DNA of 63,814 nt, the filler included, from Bdellovibrionota bacterium (lineage in GTDB: Bacteria; Bdellovibrionota; Bdellovibrionia; Bdellovibrionales; JAEYZS01), in the NCBI GenBank assembly GCA_963169515.1. It is 5 parts of 5 records of this genome, joined end to end, with 100 filler letters (N's around TTAATTAATTAA, not from the genome) between each part and the next. Parts side by side here need not be neighbours in the genome. Positions count along the whole stretch, not along the records: positions 13,121 to 34,274 come from CAUJEF010000052.1; 4 more parts are not named here. One strand, 5' to 3'. Each line of letters begins with the position of its first letter. Within the stretch, counting starts at the first letter, position 1. Below, piece by piece: positions 13,021 to 58,033 of the stretch. A program made the position numbers and the translations under genes. The notes below the pieces were generated by a model. That model did no database searches and had not been told where the DNA came from. It saw nothing but the letters and a program-made list of their open reading frames with translations.

Positions 13021-13120
13021 NNNNNNNNNNNNNNNNNNNNNNNNNNNNNNNNNNNNNNNNNNNNTTAATTAATTAANNNNNNNNNNNNNNNNNNNNNNNN
13101 NNNNNNNNNNNNNNNNNNNN
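13021..13120. other. Artificial contig linker
   Basis: N44-TTAATTAATTAA-N44 (six-frame stop spacer). Confidence 0.99.
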
Positions 13121-13407
13121 TGCTTCGGGCGAATATCAATCGGTTATTTCGCAAAACCTGGTGTACTACAAAAAACATAGAACGCTTAAAAGACCATATC
13201 GAGCTCTATGTTTACTATCACAATCATGTGCTTTTAGAAAAGACAGCATAAAGGGTCCCTGCTCTTAGGAATCCAGAAAACGCTTGCCATTTGTGGCGAG
13301 CGCCACAGGTTTGGCCATGGATGGCCAAATTTTCGGGATTCAAAGACAGGATGTCTTAGTTCTTCTGGTTCAAAGAGGTGTTTTTTCAACAATCATGTGA
13401 GCCAGTT
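13121..13407 (+). mobile_element. 3' end of IS1-like transposase plus structured right-end region, copy A
   Basis: 13123-13251 encodes LRANINRLFRKTWCTTKNIERLKDHIELYVYYHNHVLLEKTA*, resembling the IS1-type C-terminus; near-identical inverted copy at 33989-34274; at a contig end. Confidence 0.75.
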
Positions 13408-16074
13408 TTATTTTGTCTTCATTTCAAACACGCCATCCCAATCTTCAGGCGGCATTTCTTGCAAATAATTTTGGCACCTTTGAAGGTACACTTGAGACGC
13501 ATAGTCATCAGGTTTTGCGTTGAGAGCCTTATTGAAGGCGTCAATAGCTTTTTCAAAGCTTCTGGCATGATAAAAGCGAGTTCCTTCTTCAAAATATTTG
13601 ATTAAATCCATTTGGTTTCCTGACAATGGCGCTCCAGAAATGAGTTCAAAAATTTTGACTGGAAGCAATTTACCCTTAACACGTACCCAATCTACTTCGC
13701 GGGTCACAAAGCCATCATTTTTGATTTCGCTTTGAGTGAATTCACTGATGATGATGCGGGTGCCATATTGTTTGGTGATGCCCTCAAGCCGCGATCCTAG
13801 GTTCACGGCATCCCCCATAACGGTATAAGAACGGACAATATCTGAGCCCATGTTACCGACACTCATGTCGCCTGTATTTATGCCAATGCCGATATCGATT
13901 TTTGGATACTGTTTCTTTTCAAACTCTTGTTGAATGACCGCAAGTTTTTCAATCATTTGGAGTGCACAATTGCATGCATACTTGGCATGGTCAGCATAGG
14001 TAATCGGCGCACCAAAAAATGCCATGATCGCATCTCCCATATATTTATCCAAGGTCCCCTTATTTTCAAACACGAGGCGGGTCATCGGAGTAAGGTATTC
14101 ACTTAAAACATTGGAAAGAATGCGTGGGTCCAACTTTTCTGAAATTGTGGTGAATCCGCGTACATCAGAAAACATGACAGAAATTTTTTCCTTGCGCCCG
14201 CCCAATTGAATGTTTTCAGGGTGTGCCAAAATTTCGTTCACAATGGCAGGGGAAACGTATTTTTCAAATGTACCTTTGAGTTCCTTTTTCTTCCGCTCTT
14301 CCGTAAGATACTTATAAAAAGTCAGGATCACATAGGTAGAGGTCACAAACAGGATTGGAAACATAATTCGGATAAGAATATTGTTGTTGAAAAAGAAAAA
14401 CTTGTCACCATAGTACAATATAGAAAGGGTGGCCAGTATAGTAATTAGACCGGATACCGCCCCCAGTTTTGAAATTAATAAACTTAAAACAACTCCAATT
14501 GTAAAAATAGCAGCCATCATCCAATATTCTTCGCGCTCATCTATCCGCAAGAAATTGTTATTAAGTAAATTGTCTGCGACGTTAGCGTGGGTCTCTAAGC
14601 CGGGGAAGTTTTCTTCAAACGGCGTTACACGCAAATCAAAAATGCCAATTGCAGTTGCGCCAAAGAAAAATATTTTATCTTTTATCCATTCGGATTTTTT
14701 TACTTTGAAGTGTTTAGGAGTCTTATTTACGATTTGTGTAATTTCGATATCATCACCTGGGGACAAAAGTTGGGCCACACTGAGGTGAGGGTAAGAATAT
14801 TTGGGGCCAGCGTAGTTTATGTATATTGAAGAATCAGATTGGACTTTGTAGTCGACGGAAATTTCATTTGTTTTGGGATCAAAAAGAGAAATTTCACTGA
14901 TTTTCTTAAAGCCTTTACGCTTCGGATGCTTTATGAAGTTTACAACTACATTTTGATTCTGAGCCGTCATTATGGCTTTCAATCCTAAGGATGGAACAAA
15001 TATGTCGTTGTACAATGCAAGGAGCGTGGTTCGTCGAATTGTGCCATCGGTATCTTGAAAGGCATTGAAGTATCCAAAGTTTTTACTAACACCGGTGAAT
15101 TCGGGGATATTCATAACAAGCGAGTCAATTTTTGGCAGGTCATCGACATATAAAAATTTATCTAGCCCGGTCATGTAATCTTCAAACGAAAGAGAAACTT
15201 GCTCCTTGTATTTTTTTCGAGTTTCTTCCCAGATTGGGCTCATGGCTTTGATAAAACTTGGGTCTCTCAGCGCAAATTGTTCGCAAAAGATCTGGAGTTC
15301 ACTTTTGACTTTGGTCGCATTGTCGTAACTGGAAGAGCTTGGATTTGTTTGCTTAACATTTTCGATCGCAAAAGAAATTGTATTTTCAATAATTTCTTTC
15401 ATTGGCAAGGTGTAATTTGAGGAGGTCGAATCATCGCTATAAATTTTTGAATTTGAGTCTATGCTAGTAAGGTAAATGTAGTTATCGTGGTACTTATTGG
15501 CGATACGGTTACAAAAAATATAGTATGGCTCCCGAGATTTATATTCTTCGAAGAAGCCGCCTAGAATTACCTTGTCTGCGTGAGCTTCAATTGACGTAGC
15601 TAACTTTTCATCGTTATTCTGTTCTGCCAACTCTTTATTGAGAAAGGTCTGATAACTGGAGGGAAGCGAGCTGAACTCTTTTGTTTTTTCTATAAATTTA
15701 AGCATGGGATTGTATTCGGGCTCTGCAAAGACAGAATCAAAGGCTATTGTCTTGGCGCCGTTTTTCAAAAGCTCCTCAATAACTTGAGCAATTTCTATTC
15801 TCGGCCAAGGCCATCTTCCTATTTTTTTAAGTGCTTCTTCATCAACTGTTACAAGGGCAATTTTTTCTGAAACGGGACGCGGGCCACGTAAAATGAAACG
15901 AAAATCTGTAGATTTTAAGTTAATCGTGTGGAGAACATTGAGAAGATTTGAATTTTTGATTTCGTATTCAGGAGTTTCATAATATAAGTAACATACGTAC
16001 GCAAATGCGAATGTAAAAAGGATTCCAATCTTGAATGCATTCGGTTCGATTATTTTCTTAAAGTGTTTTTTCAT
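13408..16074 (-). CDS. CHASE2-domain class III adenylate cyclase with C-terminal TPR
   Basis: GRWPWPR, DTDGTIRR, PGLETHA (CHASE2); three TM helices; FSDVRGFT, DKYMGDA, YTVMGDAVNLGSRLEG (Lys/Thr indicate ATP specificity). Confidence 0.95.
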   Translation of the reverse strand: MKKHFKKIIEPNAFKIGILFTFAFAYVCYLYYETPEYEIKNSNLLNVLHTINLKSTDFRFILRGPRPVSEKIALVTVDEEALKKIGRWPWPRIEIAQVIEELLKNGAKTIAFDSVFAEPEYNPMLKFIEKTKEFSSLPSSYQTFLNKELAEQNNDEKLATSIEAHADKVILGGFFEEYKSREPYYIFCNRIANKYHDNYIYLTSIDSNSKIYSDDSTSSNYTLPMKEIIENTISFAIENVKQTNPSSSSYDNATKVKSELQIFCEQFALRDPSFIKAMSPIWEETRKKYKEQVSLSFEDYMTGLDKFLYVDDLPKIDSLVMNIPEFTGVSKNFGYFNAFQDTDGTIRRTTLLALYNDIFVPSLGLKAIMTAQNQNVVVNFIKHPKRKGFKKISEISLFDPKTNEISVDYKVQSDSSIYINYAGPKYSYPHLSVAQLLSPGDDIEITQIVNKTPKHFKVKKSEWIKDKIFFFGATAIGIFDLRVTPFEENFPGLETHANVADNLLNNNFLRIDEREEYWMMAAIFTIGVVLSLLISKLGAVSGLITILATLSILYYGDKFFFFNNNILIRIMFPILFVTSTYVILTFYKYLTEERKKKELKGTFEKYVSPAIVNEILAHPENIQLGGRKEKISVMFSDVRGFTTISEKLDPRILSNVLSEYLTPMTRLVFENKGTLDKYMGDAIMAFFGAPITYADHAKYACNCALQMIEKLAVIQQEFEKKQYPKIDIGIGINTGDMSVGNMGSDIVRSYTVMGDAVNLGSRLEGITKQYGTRIIISEFTQSEIKNDGFVTREVDWVRVKGKLLPVKIFELISGAPLSGNQMDLIKYFEEGTRFYHARSFEKAIDAFNKALNAKPDDYASQVYLQRCQNYLQEMPPEDWDGVFEMKTK

Positions 16075-16122
16075 GGTTGTATCTGACACGAGCAGTGATG
16101 TAACTTTGCACACATATACATT

Positions 16123-33007: not shown

Positions 33008-33988
33008 ATGGCGGGGCAAATAAAAAAATTGGAAAAAGGGGATTATCTTTTCAAAGAAGGTGATACTTCCGACGCAATGTATGTGGTGAAAAAAGGAAGT
33101 GTTGGAATCTATAAGGCAAAAGGCCAAGCAGAGGTTGAACTGGCAACAGTGAAGCCGGGGCAAATGCTAGGCGAGATGGCATTTTTTGATCAAAAACCCC
33201 GAAGTGCAACTGCGAAAGCTGTAGCACAGTCAGAGGTGATCGAACTTCCATTCAATGCACTCCAAGCCCATTTCAATCAAATGCCGGAATGGCTAAAATC
33301 AATGGTGAAGACCATTAACGAAAATCTACGCGATGCAAATAAGAAGATTAAGCAATTGGAAAAGGTCGAAGAAGGTAATCAGCACGCGTTTCCCCCGCAC
33401 ACCATCACGCGCTTGTGTGCGATAATTGCAATGGTCGCAGAACGCTATGGTGAAGAAACTGCCGAGGGCGTGGTTCTGCCCCAGTACACGTTAAGGAATT
33501 ACTGCATTCAGATTTTTCAGCAACCAACAGCAAAGATGGATCGGCTGATGACAATACTTGAAGGCTTTGGAATTATGAAAGTCGAAGATTTGGGTGAGCA
33601 AAGAAAAAAAATTATCTTGTTCAAAAAAGATTTTCTGTTTGGGTTTGTTGAATACTACAATGACTATTTATTCAAGGATGAATCAAAACGGGTGACTGTA
33701 GAAGACAAGGACCTAAAAATTTTAAAGGCTCTAATGCATTTTGGTCGCAAAGTCCCTGCAAATGATAAAAAACGTCACAAGGTCAGCCTTGAGCAAATTC
33801 AAAATGAATCCATGAAGGAAGTCGGCTATGTCGTTACGACTAAGGATTATGAGAATGTTATTTCAAAGCAGCTTACTTCTGAAAAAATTGCTGATCCAGA
33901 TGGCATAAAGCTCGAAATAGATATCGAGTACTTAGAAAAAATAGTTCCTTACTGGGAAGTAATATACGGAATTGAACGGAACGGTTAA
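33008..33988 (+). CDS. Cyclic-nucleotide-binding (Crp-like N-terminus) protein
   Basis: LFKEGD, MYVVKKG, GEMAFFDQKPRSATA phosphate-binding cassette. Confidence 0.88.
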   Translation: MAGQIKKLEKGDYLFKEGDTSDAMYVVKKGSVGIYKAKGQAEVELATVKPGQMLGEMAFFDQKPRSATAKAVAQSEVIELPFNALQAHFNQMPEWLKSMVKTINENLRDANKKIKQLEKVEEGNQHAFPPHTITRLCAIIAMVAERYGEETAEGVVLPQYTLRNYCIQIFQQPTAKMDRLMTILEGFGIMKVEDLGEQRKKIILFKKDFLFGFVEYYNDYLFKDESKRVTVEDKDLKILKALMHFGRKVPANDKKRHKVSLEQIQNESMKEVGYVVTTKDYENVISKQLTSEKIADPDGIKLEIDIEYLEKIVPYWEVIYGIERNG

Positions 33989-34274
33989 AAACTGGCCCAC
34001 ATGATTGTTGAAAAAAGGCCTCTTTGAACCAAAAGAACTAAGACATCCTGTCTTTGAATCCCGAAAATTTGGCCATCCATGGCCAAACCTGTGGCGCTCG
34101 CCATAAATGGCAAGCGTTTTCTGGATTCCTAAGAACAGGGACCCTTTATGCTGTCTTTTCTAAAAGCACATGATTGTGATAGTAAACATAGAGCTCGATA
34201 TGGTCTTTTAAGCGTTCTATGTTTTTTGTAGTACACCAGGTTTTGCGAAATAACCGATTGATATTCGCCCGAAG
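33989..34274 (-). mobile_element. 3' end of IS1-like transposase plus structured right-end region, copy B
   Basis: Reverse complement of 13123-13407; coding part 34146-34274 identical, six substitutions in the non-coding part. Confidence 0.75.
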
Positions 34275-34374
34275 NNNNNNNNNNNNNNNNNNNNNNNNNN
34301 NNNNNNNNNNNNNNNNNNTTAATTAATTAANNNNNNNNNNNNNNNNNNNNNNNNNNNNNNNNNNNNNNNNNNNN
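34275..34374. other. Artificial contig linker
   Basis: N44-TTAATTAATTAA-N44. Confidence 0.99.
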
Positions 34375-35637
34375 AACCAAGAATTTTTTTGCGAACGTAT
34401 CCAATGTCTTTTCAATTTCGTCCACAGGCAAATGCTGATTCACGTTGTCCGGATAATGGAACTGCGAAAAATCACGAACACTCTCGAGATCTTTTAAAAT
34501 GCTCCCAACAGGTACAGTTTTTGATGAAGCCCACGGGTGGCTGAACGCCAAAATCGAAAAGCGATCAAGCATCGGACCGGACATTTTCTGAATTGAGTTT
34601 AAACAAAATTTAGGTCGCCCCTTGCAATCGAACTCCGCGGCTGGGATTAAATGTCCGCATGGACACAGATTTGTCGTTGCCAACAGAATAAAACGAGCGG
34701 GGAAAACCATAACGCTTCCGGTGCGTGAAATGGTTATTTTCCCCGCTTCGAGTGGCTCGCGAAGAGCCTCAATGACCTTAGGCTCAAACTCCAAGAACTC
34801 ATCCATGACGAGCACCCCCCCATGAGCCCTTGTAATTTCACCCGGTTTGGGCTGCCCCCCACCACCAATCATGGCAAGGTTGGTGGATGTGTGATGTGGC
34901 GCGACTACAGGCCGCCAATTTGTTGGAATACCAAAATGTCTAGAAATCTGCTGTGATTTTTTAAACTCGTTCGAATTAGGCTCCCCCAATAAATTGGCGA
35001 TCACAAATGCAAGCGTTGTTTTTCCGGTCCCGGGAGGTCCTGCAAATAATGTGTGGTGCTCCCCATGGGCGGCTATTTTTATCAGCTCTGCTTGTTCAAG
35101 TGTGACTTTGATGTTTGGCAATTCAGGACGATTTGCTCGAATTCCCAAATCAACGGGTCTGATGAAATTCGGGCTTTTTAAATCTTTAAGTTCGCCCAAG
35201 CTCATCACTTCGAAATCACATTCCGTTAATCTACCCGTATAGAATGTGCGTGACCGCGGTAGTTCTATGATATCCGTAAAATCATCTGGGACCAGGACGT
35301 CCCCTTTGAGCGACAGTTCTCCATATAAAGCAACGGATTCAACCTCAGGCGCAACTTCTTGATTTGTTTCCCACAAAATTCCTGCCGCAACAGCAAGATC
35401 CAACCCTCTGCTGCTTTTCTTCAGATAATTGGGGCGCAAATTTACTAGAATTTGTTTTGATTTTGGCAACCGATAACCCTGATGCTTTAGCGCTGATTGA
35501 ATGCGAACAACACTTTCCCTTATCAAAGGATCAGGCAAGCCCAGAAATTGAATCTTAGGAATACCAGGGGTTAGACTGATTTCTATTTCAACAGGGCGTA
35601 AGCCCAAACCATCGCGAATATAAGACGTAAGTTTCAT
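34375..35637 (-). CDS. comM: YifB/ComM family Mg-chelatase-like AAA ATPase (3' partial)
   Basis: GLPDPLIRES, GLDLAVA, GPPGTGKT, APHHTS, PGEITRAHGGVLVMDE, NLCPCG, SGPMLDR. Confidence 0.92.
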
Positions 35638-41237: not shown

Positions 41238-41337
41238 NNNNNNNNNNNNNNNNNNNNNNNNNNNNNNNNNNNNNNNNNNNNTTAATTAATTAANNNNNNN
41301 NNNNNNNNNNNNNNNNNNNNNNNNNNNNNNNNNNNNN
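41238..41337. other. Artificial contig linker
   Basis: N44-TTAATTAATTAA-N44. Confidence 0.99.
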
Positions 41338-57933: not shown

Positions 57934-58033
57934 NNNNNNNNNNNNNNNNNNNNNNNNNNNNNNNNNNNNNNNNNNNNTTAATTAATTAANNNNNNNNNNN
58001 NNNNNNNNNNNNNNNNNNNNNNNNNNNNNNNNN
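57934..58033. other. Artificial contig linker
   Basis: N44-TTAATTAATTAA-N44. Confidence 0.99.

Follow-up and report, generated by a model that had tools for sequence, protein, structure and literature searches.

We analysed a 63,814-nt stretch of DNA (the window) from the Bdellovibrionota bacterium assembly GCA_963169515.1 (genome G000 below, 173 contigs, 96% complete), in which the non-coding 3′ tail of an IS1-like insertion sequence (IS) holds a small structured cassette. Over about 85–100 nt it comprises a closing stem of 11–12 bp, a junction from which two hairpins branch and, just downstream, a third hairpin. Its helices have been kept by compensatory change in a diverged relative of the IS and in nine other genomes, and the same cassette is also found downstream of ordinary genes and of selfish genes of an unrelated kind (HNH endonucleases). 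Because it occurs behind such genes, and as doublets, in other genomes, it is a portable structured cassette and not a private part of the IS1-like element. Its function we infer: our preferred reading, to which we assign a probability of about 0.4, is that it acts as a 3′-untranslated region (3′ UTR) element bound by CsrA. The initial annotation of this DNA, made from the sequence alone, had proposed either an undescribed RNA of an IS1-like element (CsrA sponge, regulator or guide) or a MITE (miniature inverted-repeat transposable element) targeted by the IS, an interpretation that our analysis partly supports.

Fold of the cassette

Coordinates are those of the window, and the features described in this section lie on its plus strand. 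Covariance models match the cassette at 13262–13360 (122.2 bits with model R1, 79.2 bits with model R3). The closing stem pairs GAATCC-A-GAAAA (13269–13280) with TTTTC-G-GGATTC (13330–13341) and encloses two hairpins. Hairpin 1 (13281–13302; CGCTTGCCA/TGGCGAGCG, 9 bp, loop TTTG) is the most variable arm across the family, while hairpin 2 (13310–13329; TTTGGCCA-TGGA-TGGCCAAA, 8 bp) has a core, CATGGATG, that recurs across lineages and carries a loop GGA at 13319–13321. Hairpin 3 (13343–13357), AAGACA-GGA-TGTCTT, presents a second GGA at 13349–13351, 30 nt after the first. The stems, the hairpins, their CsrA-type GGA loops and the two ACAATCATGTG repeats discussed below are all where the initial annotation had placed them.

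Folded as RNA, the region 13245–13410 reaches −60.4 kcal/mol (z −4.22), a value equalled by 0 of 200 shuffles, and the three-way junction is present in the minimum-energy fold. There the 5′ half of hairpin 3 pairs instead with 13258–13266 to give an extended outer stem, the alternative to hairpin 3. The five copies in the genome, a small sample, agree with the fold: each change in the closing stem, hairpin 1 or the extended stem stays paired as G-U on the transposase strand; for the closing stem this holds in the copies on contigs C135 and C49. The second copy in the window (copy B) differs from the one described here (copy A) at 13262, 13293, 13365, 13379, 13380 and 13400; as had been claimed, these six substitutions miss the listed stems, with 13293 in the loop of hairpin 1. 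All six fall in the 158-nt non-coding tail and none in the 130-nt coding part (13122–13409 compared with 33988–34274).

Covariation and conserved features

An informative test is provided by a related transposase locus, L120: the 110 C-terminal residues present on its contig are 64% identical to the transposase of the IS, and its flanking non-coding DNA is unrecognisable. L120 keeps all four helices: in an alignment fitted to the model, and with L120 counting as one independent sequence, both partners differ in 13 of the 34 pairs, and 98.5% of the cells are paired, against 18–50% when the partners are slid. Wider alignments, likewise fitted to the model and containing copies from one genome that are not independent, give similar results. 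Among ten diverse copies 21/34 pairs are changed on both sides (88.5% paired, 24–45% when slid), and among twelve representatives from 11 sources, after three reverse or second-copy rows were dropped, 17/27 model pairs are changed on both sides with 89.2% of cells paired. The predicted covariation of the stems is thus borne out.

Some parts of the cassette vary freely in sequence and others hardly at all. At its end the closing stem has AAAA(C) in one strand and (GAA)UUUU in the opposite one. The sequence of hairpin 1 varies, and in some cases this hairpin is doubled. Most lineages have the hairpin 2 core CAUGGAUG, with the loop GGA in 9 of the 12 representatives, and this hairpin is mostly flanked by UGA..GAA or CGA..GAG, which we take to be tandem G.A pairs, an RNA-type motif; in the window IS the flanks are Watson–Crick UUU..AAA. 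Hairpin 3 has GGA in its loop in 12/12 representatives, on a stem that changes completely and covaries. This retention of GGA in loops whose stems change points to a sequence-specific loop reader.

We considered whether the UGA-stem-GAA flanks of hairpin 2 might mark a hammerhead ribozyme, and rejected this on the missing CUGA box, a different junction pair and the lack of an Rfam match. An integron attC site was rejected by reading, no integrase search having been made: attC-like traits are present (placement after open reading frames (ORFs), structure conserved over sequence), but the AAAAC/GTTTT boxes lie beside the junction and not at the base, and the copies are dispersed and not arrayed.

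Occurrence in other genomes

Whole genomes were searched with model R2, built from the copies in G000 plus L120, and with R3, built from ten diverse copies. R3 matches 8 of 151 genomes of the same order, with 5 copies in G000, 28 in G141, 12 in G020, 3 in G037 and one each in G005, G003, G012 and G114; no reverse-strand matches were reported in this order sample. In a phylum sample it matches 4/151 genomes, including one of another order, G279, with 29 copies. No Rfam 15 family matches the cassette in the window or in 11 other carrying loci.

The surroundings of the copies differ from genome to genome. In G020, 11 of the 12 lie directly 3′ of a multi-copy HNH-endonuclease ORF on the same strand. 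The repeated unit there is ORF, cassette and a further palindrome of ~100 nt; the HNH family itself (~270–320 aa, Bdellovibrionota-rich) gives 25 matches in G020, 14 in G141, 15 in G037, 2 in G114 and 1 in G000 (C142:5183–6070). The G141 copies form the core of a longer dispersed repeat (at least about 140 nt), which follows ordinary genes, e.g. those for DUF302, S41 peptidase and HMG-CoA lyase-like proteins. Elsewhere the cassette has a beta-helix gene on one side and a DDE_Tnp_1 transposase gene on the other (L125), or is near a phage-type integrase gene (L126). With our query the IS1-like transposase was not found in G141, G020, G037, G005 or G012; G279 encodes it at two places, with tails that do not contain the cassette.

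Six G141 copies (L146, L151, L153, L155, L158 and L170) share a conserved stretch of ~45 nt just upstream, and since it contains a −35/−10-like pair (TTGCTA, 16 nt, TAACAA) some G141 copies might be self-transcribed. In other genomes the end of the cassette nearest the junction (AAAACTTGGCCC at L127 1516–1528, AAAACTTGCCC at L188 about 1384–1395) resembles the tip of the IS terminal repeat (AAAACTGGCCC, at the left end of the IS in L003), a likeness that may be due to chance or may be one reason for the association of cassette and IS.

The carrier insertion sequence

The window IS is cut by a contig end, and contains the last 43 codons and stop of its transposase gene (13122–13251, plus strand, as are the other features of this copy). 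One full copy was recovered elsewhere in the genome (contig C135), as the initial annotation had recommended; it is ~1.1 kb long and has one single ORF of 288 aa. The stop codon TAA is at 13249–13251, and the element ends with the right terminal inverted repeat (CAACAATCATGTGAGCCAGTTTT, 13387–13409), beyond which the five copies diverge; 13252–13409 is therefore the whole non-coding 3′ tail. The initial annotation rightly saw here the structured non-coding 3′ part of an IS1-like element, while ending it two bases early, at 13407.

We call the carrier IS1-like from three lines of evidence. Its transposase matches NCBIfam NF033558 over residues 5–149 only, with 54.8 bits (E 1e-14), below the cut-off of 100; a Pfam scan gives helix-turn-helix motifs only, DDE_Tnp_IS1 not being among the matches; and three plasmid tblastn matches with 23–27% identity over 50–97% of the protein (86–97% for two of them) are annotated as IS1 family transposases. 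The terminal inverted repeats of the full copy (AAAACTGGCCCACAT...) are identical at 21/23 positions, and this repeat length and the ~1.1 kb total agree with IS1 elements (about 20–25 bp and about 0.8–1.1 kb). Classical IS1 has insA and insB′ in two frames, joined by a frameshift. The carrier does not have this layout, its ORF being in a single frame of 288 aa, which presumably fits the single-ORF IS1 subgroups. In the full copy (L003), the transposase ATG is overlapped, in a different reading frame, by a short frame (ATGGCTCAG...TAA) just upstream, an arrangement suggestive of translational coupling; a clear Shine–Dalgarno sequence could not be read at that transposase start.

The 11-mer ACAATCATGTG occurs in the ORF end (13220–13230, codons H-N-H-V) and again, identical and in the same direction, in the right terminal repeat, whose inner half it represents (13389–13399); the ORF occurrence is present in all three copies that reach that place. 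Its meaning is uncertain because the relative L120 does not repeat it; it may be due to chance or be specific to the lineage. We rejected the idea of a relic right end lying immediately behind the stop codon or at the 11-mer, as the 10 nt that follow the ORF occurrence share 0/10 positions with the terminal repeat tip and L120 does not have the repeat.

Relatives of the transposase were collected from 38 loci of Bdellovibrionota metagenome-assembled genomes (36–64% identity) and 20 metagenome loci, and 45 of these 58 loci were scanned whole with R1, the omitted 13 being further copies of a 219-nt tail type. All the elements share a similar tip (GGGCCAGTTT-like). Their stop-to-end stretches are 33–34, 66, 77, 82, 128–138, 185 or 218–220 nt long and unrelated in sequence. 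With R1 and R3 the cassette was found in only two of the loci, L120 and L104, the latter being the same element as the window IS (97% protein identity). An RNA specific to the IS1-like family, as initially proposed, is accordingly not supported: homologous transposases are generally followed by tails (33–220 nt) unrelated to this one, and on the criterion for refutation given in the initial annotation itself this part of the proposal fails.

Two of the other tail types are of interest for their layout. Tails of the L009 type (219 nt) form a long palindrome, with the terminal repeat as one outer arm and an inverted copy of it as the other; the palindrome encloses two hairpins, of which the second is GGGC-AGGA-GCCC. 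The L009 genome has 12 copies, 11 of them at transposase loci. The L029 type is a palindrome of ~200 bp with the same layout that occurs also without a transposase, with 67 matches (strands counted separately); 17 full-length copies were aligned and have arms with extensive compensatory change around a conserved core. One transposase locus was returned from the L029 genome, in a relative search that was not exhaustive. In both lineages, unlike in the window IS, an inverted copy of the terminal repeat precedes the palindromic tail. We considered homology of these tails with the cassette on account of the common layout (long stem, two hairpins, second AGGA loop); as R3 matches neither type, it is unproven, and we claim no more than a common architecture. 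A palindromic repeat of ~200 bp related to the L029 tail is scattered in genome G008 (L074–L103); its arms covary, and in several subfamilies the tip of the first central hairpin is swapped for GGA-containing loops.

A possible link with CsrA

Both GGA loops of the cassette fit the loop format of CsrA/RsmE sites. The gene csrA, which the initial annotation had wanted confirmed, is present in G000 and adjoins fliW (csrA, then fliW), with flagellin genes on the same contig. Hairpins with this loop format also occur in flagellin leaders of the genome, two in one leader (GCCA-AACGGA-TGGC, AATCA-CGGA-TGATT) and one in a second leader (GGGC-TCGGAT-GCCC). In Bdellovibrio bacteriovorus CsrA is functional and acts on a GGA-bearing flagellin leader, and CsrA is otherwise little known in this group of bacteria (PMC13443453). 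From these sequence features, binding of the cassette by CsrA is plausible.

The cassette would then act in the transcript of the upstream gene, here as the 3′ UTR of the transposase mRNA, where the GGA loops of hairpins 2 and 3, with their spacing of about 30 nt, would match the format bound by CsrA dimers. Bound to the message tail, CsrA might protect the transcript or mark it, and cassettes present in many copies could draw CsrA off its flagellin targets. The cassette would persist either by helping the expression of its carrier or by spreading on its own account, using carriers. A stronger version, in which the cassette would be a mobile CsrA decoy with two high-affinity sites that is carried in the 3′ UTRs of selfish genes (those for IS1-like transposases and HNH endonucleases) and also multiplies alone, appears doubtful to us.

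Weighing RNA-level and DNA-level explanations

Placement and base pairing both speak for a role in RNA, and RNA-level readings taken together are on balance probable. Among 46 copies examined, 44 had an upstream ORF of at least 110 aa (three rows with no such ORF were dropped), and the cassette is co-oriented with it in 34/44 (19/26 in G141, 8/8 in G020), in counts for which the ORFs are heuristic and the G020 copies are not independent. The next downstream ORF is convergent in 26/44. The cassette starts 11 nt after the stop codon in the window IS and 7–35 nt after it in three G141 copies. Non-Watson–Crick stem cells are mostly G.U: 27 distinct G141 copies have 33 G.U and 4 A.C cells, and the set from the carrier IS itself has 8 and 0.

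Several observations weigh against a CsrA-bound 3′ UTR element. Across lineages the wobble asymmetry is gone (G.U 10, A.C 8), and a single-stranded DNA substrate would be equally expected to give the same wobbles and strand asymmetry where they are seen. The region 13245–13410 being an imperfect palindrome, its opposite strand folds almost as well (−51 kcal/mol, z −4.03), and the reverse-orientation scores of L120 and L125 come close to their forward ones. The pair counts given above share the model-fitted alignments. A consensus scan of the cassette found no promoter and no intrinsic terminator, no sigma-70-type promoter was found by such a scan in or before the cassette in the IS, and no conserved hairpin precedes the T6 run at 13381–13386. 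RNA-library data consist of low-depth Logan contigs only, from four RNA-labelled runs; one contig of 151 nt, from a run that is RNA by guess only, spans the cassette and the transposase 3′ end and carries no information on strand, ends or transcription. As for CsrA, the Rfam rsmX model matches weakly at 13285–13386 (24.9 bits, E 0.011), far below its gathering score of 56; three of the 12 lineages have no GGA in hairpin 2, and several G141 copies have CGA there. Strict CsrA-type hairpins, defined as CA(N)GGA(N)TG with at least 3 more pairs, number 76 in the genome and 40–57 in five mononucleotide shuffles; ten of the 76 are IS cassettes and only one is in a flagellin leader, so this pattern does not discriminate. 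Sponge small RNAs of the CsrB/RsmZ clan are stand-alone transcripts with many sites and their own promoter, whereas a cassette unit has only two GGA sites. Lastly, the fetched G279 loci contain 51 matches arranged as head-to-head inverted doublets, a REPIN/BIME-like pattern.

This last pattern is what would be produced by a selfish repeat that, like REP/REPIN or MITE elements, acts purely at the DNA level, an explanation that we take seriously although we consider it less likely than the preferred reading. One strand would fold as single-stranded DNA and be recognised by a mobilising enzyme, perhaps the multi-copy HNH protein, the IS1-like transposase or another; the copy in the IS tail would either have come along as a passenger or serve as a subterminal recognition structure, with effects in RNA as by-products. 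Besides the doublets, the foldability of both strands, the two-way matches and the wobbles already mentioned, the numerous dispersed copies (28 in G141, 29 in G279) argue for it, as do the link of the cassette to two unrelated selfish gene classes and the long palindromic 3′ tails of two other IS lineages, one of which also occurs without a transposase (~200 bp, 67 matches). Copy numbers of the REP/REPIN kind are reached in G141 (28 copies) and G279 (51 doublet matches) and not in G000, where 5/5 cassettes are inside the IS, joined to the transposase tail, and no solo cassette was found by copy search or with R2 and R3. No IS-type terminal inverted repeats flank the cassette in the window or in G141, and, as noted, the IS1-like transposase was not found in five of the carrying genomes. 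A RAYT link was rejected: PF01797 matches occur in all five genomes searched, but such a Y1 transposase gene adjoins only 1/28 G141 copies and none in G279. The orientation bias towards the upstream gene and the loop GGA kept while stems change completely also speak for the preferred reading and not for a DNA-level repeat. The proposal of a MITE targeted by the IS fares in the same mixed way, failing in G000, where 5/5 copies are inside the right terminal repeat with differing sequence beyond it, and agreeing with the dispersed copies that have no transposase in other genomes. A MITE derived from this IS was rejected, since the cassette has a terminal repeat of the IS on its right only, with no inverted copy before it, and G000 has no solo copies.

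Two further explanations remain at the RNA level. The cassette could be a plain 3′-end element, a barrier to 3′-to-5′ exonuclease or a weak terminator as with REP and ERIC, in which CsrA plays no part and the GGA is simply inherited. Its stable fold, its position directly after stop codons, its orientation, the convergent downstream ORFs and the U-rich stretches after hairpin 3 in some lineages (e.g. L126) speak for this. We rate it as improbable, since terminator consensus is missing, the U tracts are not conserved, and neither the hairpin 3 GGA in 12/12 on a changing stem nor the conserved hairpin 2 core is explained. A guide or bridge RNA that programs the transposase or HNH nuclease, as in IS110 or IS200/IS605, is very improbable, although the cassette lies immediately 3′ of a nuclease or transposase ORF in two element classes and conserves structure while its sequence varies. 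The cassette also follows ordinary genes, as do the 28 G141 copies in a genome where the IS1-like transposase was not found; only 1/28 of these is within 1 kb of any of the 14 HNH-family matches, and most transposase relatives do not have the cassette. Moreover, its variable parts are covarying stems and not free target-pairing loops, no Rfam guide-RNA model matches, and the carrier is IS1-like, not IS110 or IS200/IS605.

Comparison with known systems

No description of the cassette was found in literature searches. The nearest described case is ISPpu9, an IS110-family element of Pseudomonas putida KT2440, with its ssr9 module MITEPpu9, which is dispensable and read as a selfish passenger that uses its carrier (PMC12288879). 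Both are small structured non-coding modules 3′ of the transposase gene inside some IS copies, absent from close IS relatives and also occurring without a transposase. The cassette differs in that it has an IS1-like DDE carrier and not an IS110 one, has no duplicate end-boxes (the sole candidate being the 11-nt direct repeat), has no solo copies in the same genome, and is spread over many genera and several carrier kinds; Ssr9 pairs with an antisense RNA, whereas the cassette has a branched fold with conserved GGA loops.

Other comparisons are with families of short repeats and with CsrA-binding RNAs. The REP/BIME/REPIN repeats and transcribed MITEs such as ERIC are short extragenic imperfect palindromes that lie after genes and whose RNA hairpins can affect mRNA ends. 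The cassette resembles REP/BIME/REPIN repeats in its tens of copies in some lineages, its inverted doublets in G279 and its placement after genes. It differs in its branched fold, a junction of two or three hairpins with one more hairpin at its flank and not a single stem-loop, in its conserved loop sequence, in being embedded in IS and HNH elements, and in the lack of a RAYT-type Y1 link (1/28). With the CsrB/RsmX/Y/Z sponges (Rfam clan CL00106) and the flagellin leaders of the FliW–CsrA system it shares a loop GGA closed by C-A..U-G and two sites ~30 nt apart, and the same loop format occurs in the flagellin leaders of its own genome, which has both csrA and fliW. Unlike CsrA-binding RNAs it is below every Rfam threshold (rsmX 24.9 against 56), has two sites per unit and no promoter that we could find, and lies 3′ of genes and not in a 5′ leader or a stand-alone small-RNA gene.

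Copies and contig joints in the window

The window consists of several contigs joined by N runs around a TTAATTAATTAA spacer, which has stops in all six frames and occurs at four places (13021–13121, 34275–34375, about 41239–41337 and about 57935–58033). Features across these joints are artefacts, and the joint at 13021–13121, to which no strand applies, is not biology. Window positions 13121–34274 are contig C52 of G000 (C52:1–21154). Copy A of the IS tail is at the very start of this contig and copy B, 98% identical and inverted, at its very end (33988–34274, minus strand, 123.5 bits with R1), with its terminal repeat at 33988–34010, cassette at 34037–34135 and transposase tail at 34146–34274. 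Copies A and B are the tails of a repeat where the assembly broke; as the spacers are artificial, the transposase gene is cut by assembly and not by biology.

The 286-nt IS tail has five copies in G000, one in the full element and four as right ends at contig ends, and the genome also has one left end of the IS, again at a contig end. Two solo matches to 26–28 nt of the IS terminal repeat (93–96% identity) are at C1:6132–6159 and C115:21411–21436, the former ~310 nt from one of 12 Y1_Tnp-like ORFs in the genome. At the other side of copy A, the last two bases of the IS are within the stop (13408–13410) of a convergent 901-aa ORF (13408–16113, minus strand), so the insertion abuts or supplies that stop. 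A 45-nt inverted repeat at 1461–1568 of the window has 98% complementary arms with 18 nt between them.

Implications

If the CsrA-bound reading holds, the cassette represents an undescribed family of structured motifs with clear covariation, absent from Rfam 15. Insertion sequences and other selfish genes in Bdellovibrionota would be exchanging a small folded cassette, in a manner that resembles the single known case of ISPpu9 and ssr9 but extends across genera and carrier types. Should the DNA-level explanation be true instead, the cassette would be a new, branched kind of REP-like repeat. If the decoy version were true, the copies would be a distributed CsrA sponge and the first described RNA antagonist or 3′ UTR target of CsrA in Bdellovibrionota, and they would couple the load and expression of mobile elements to the FliW–CsrA–flagellin switch in these predatory bacteria.

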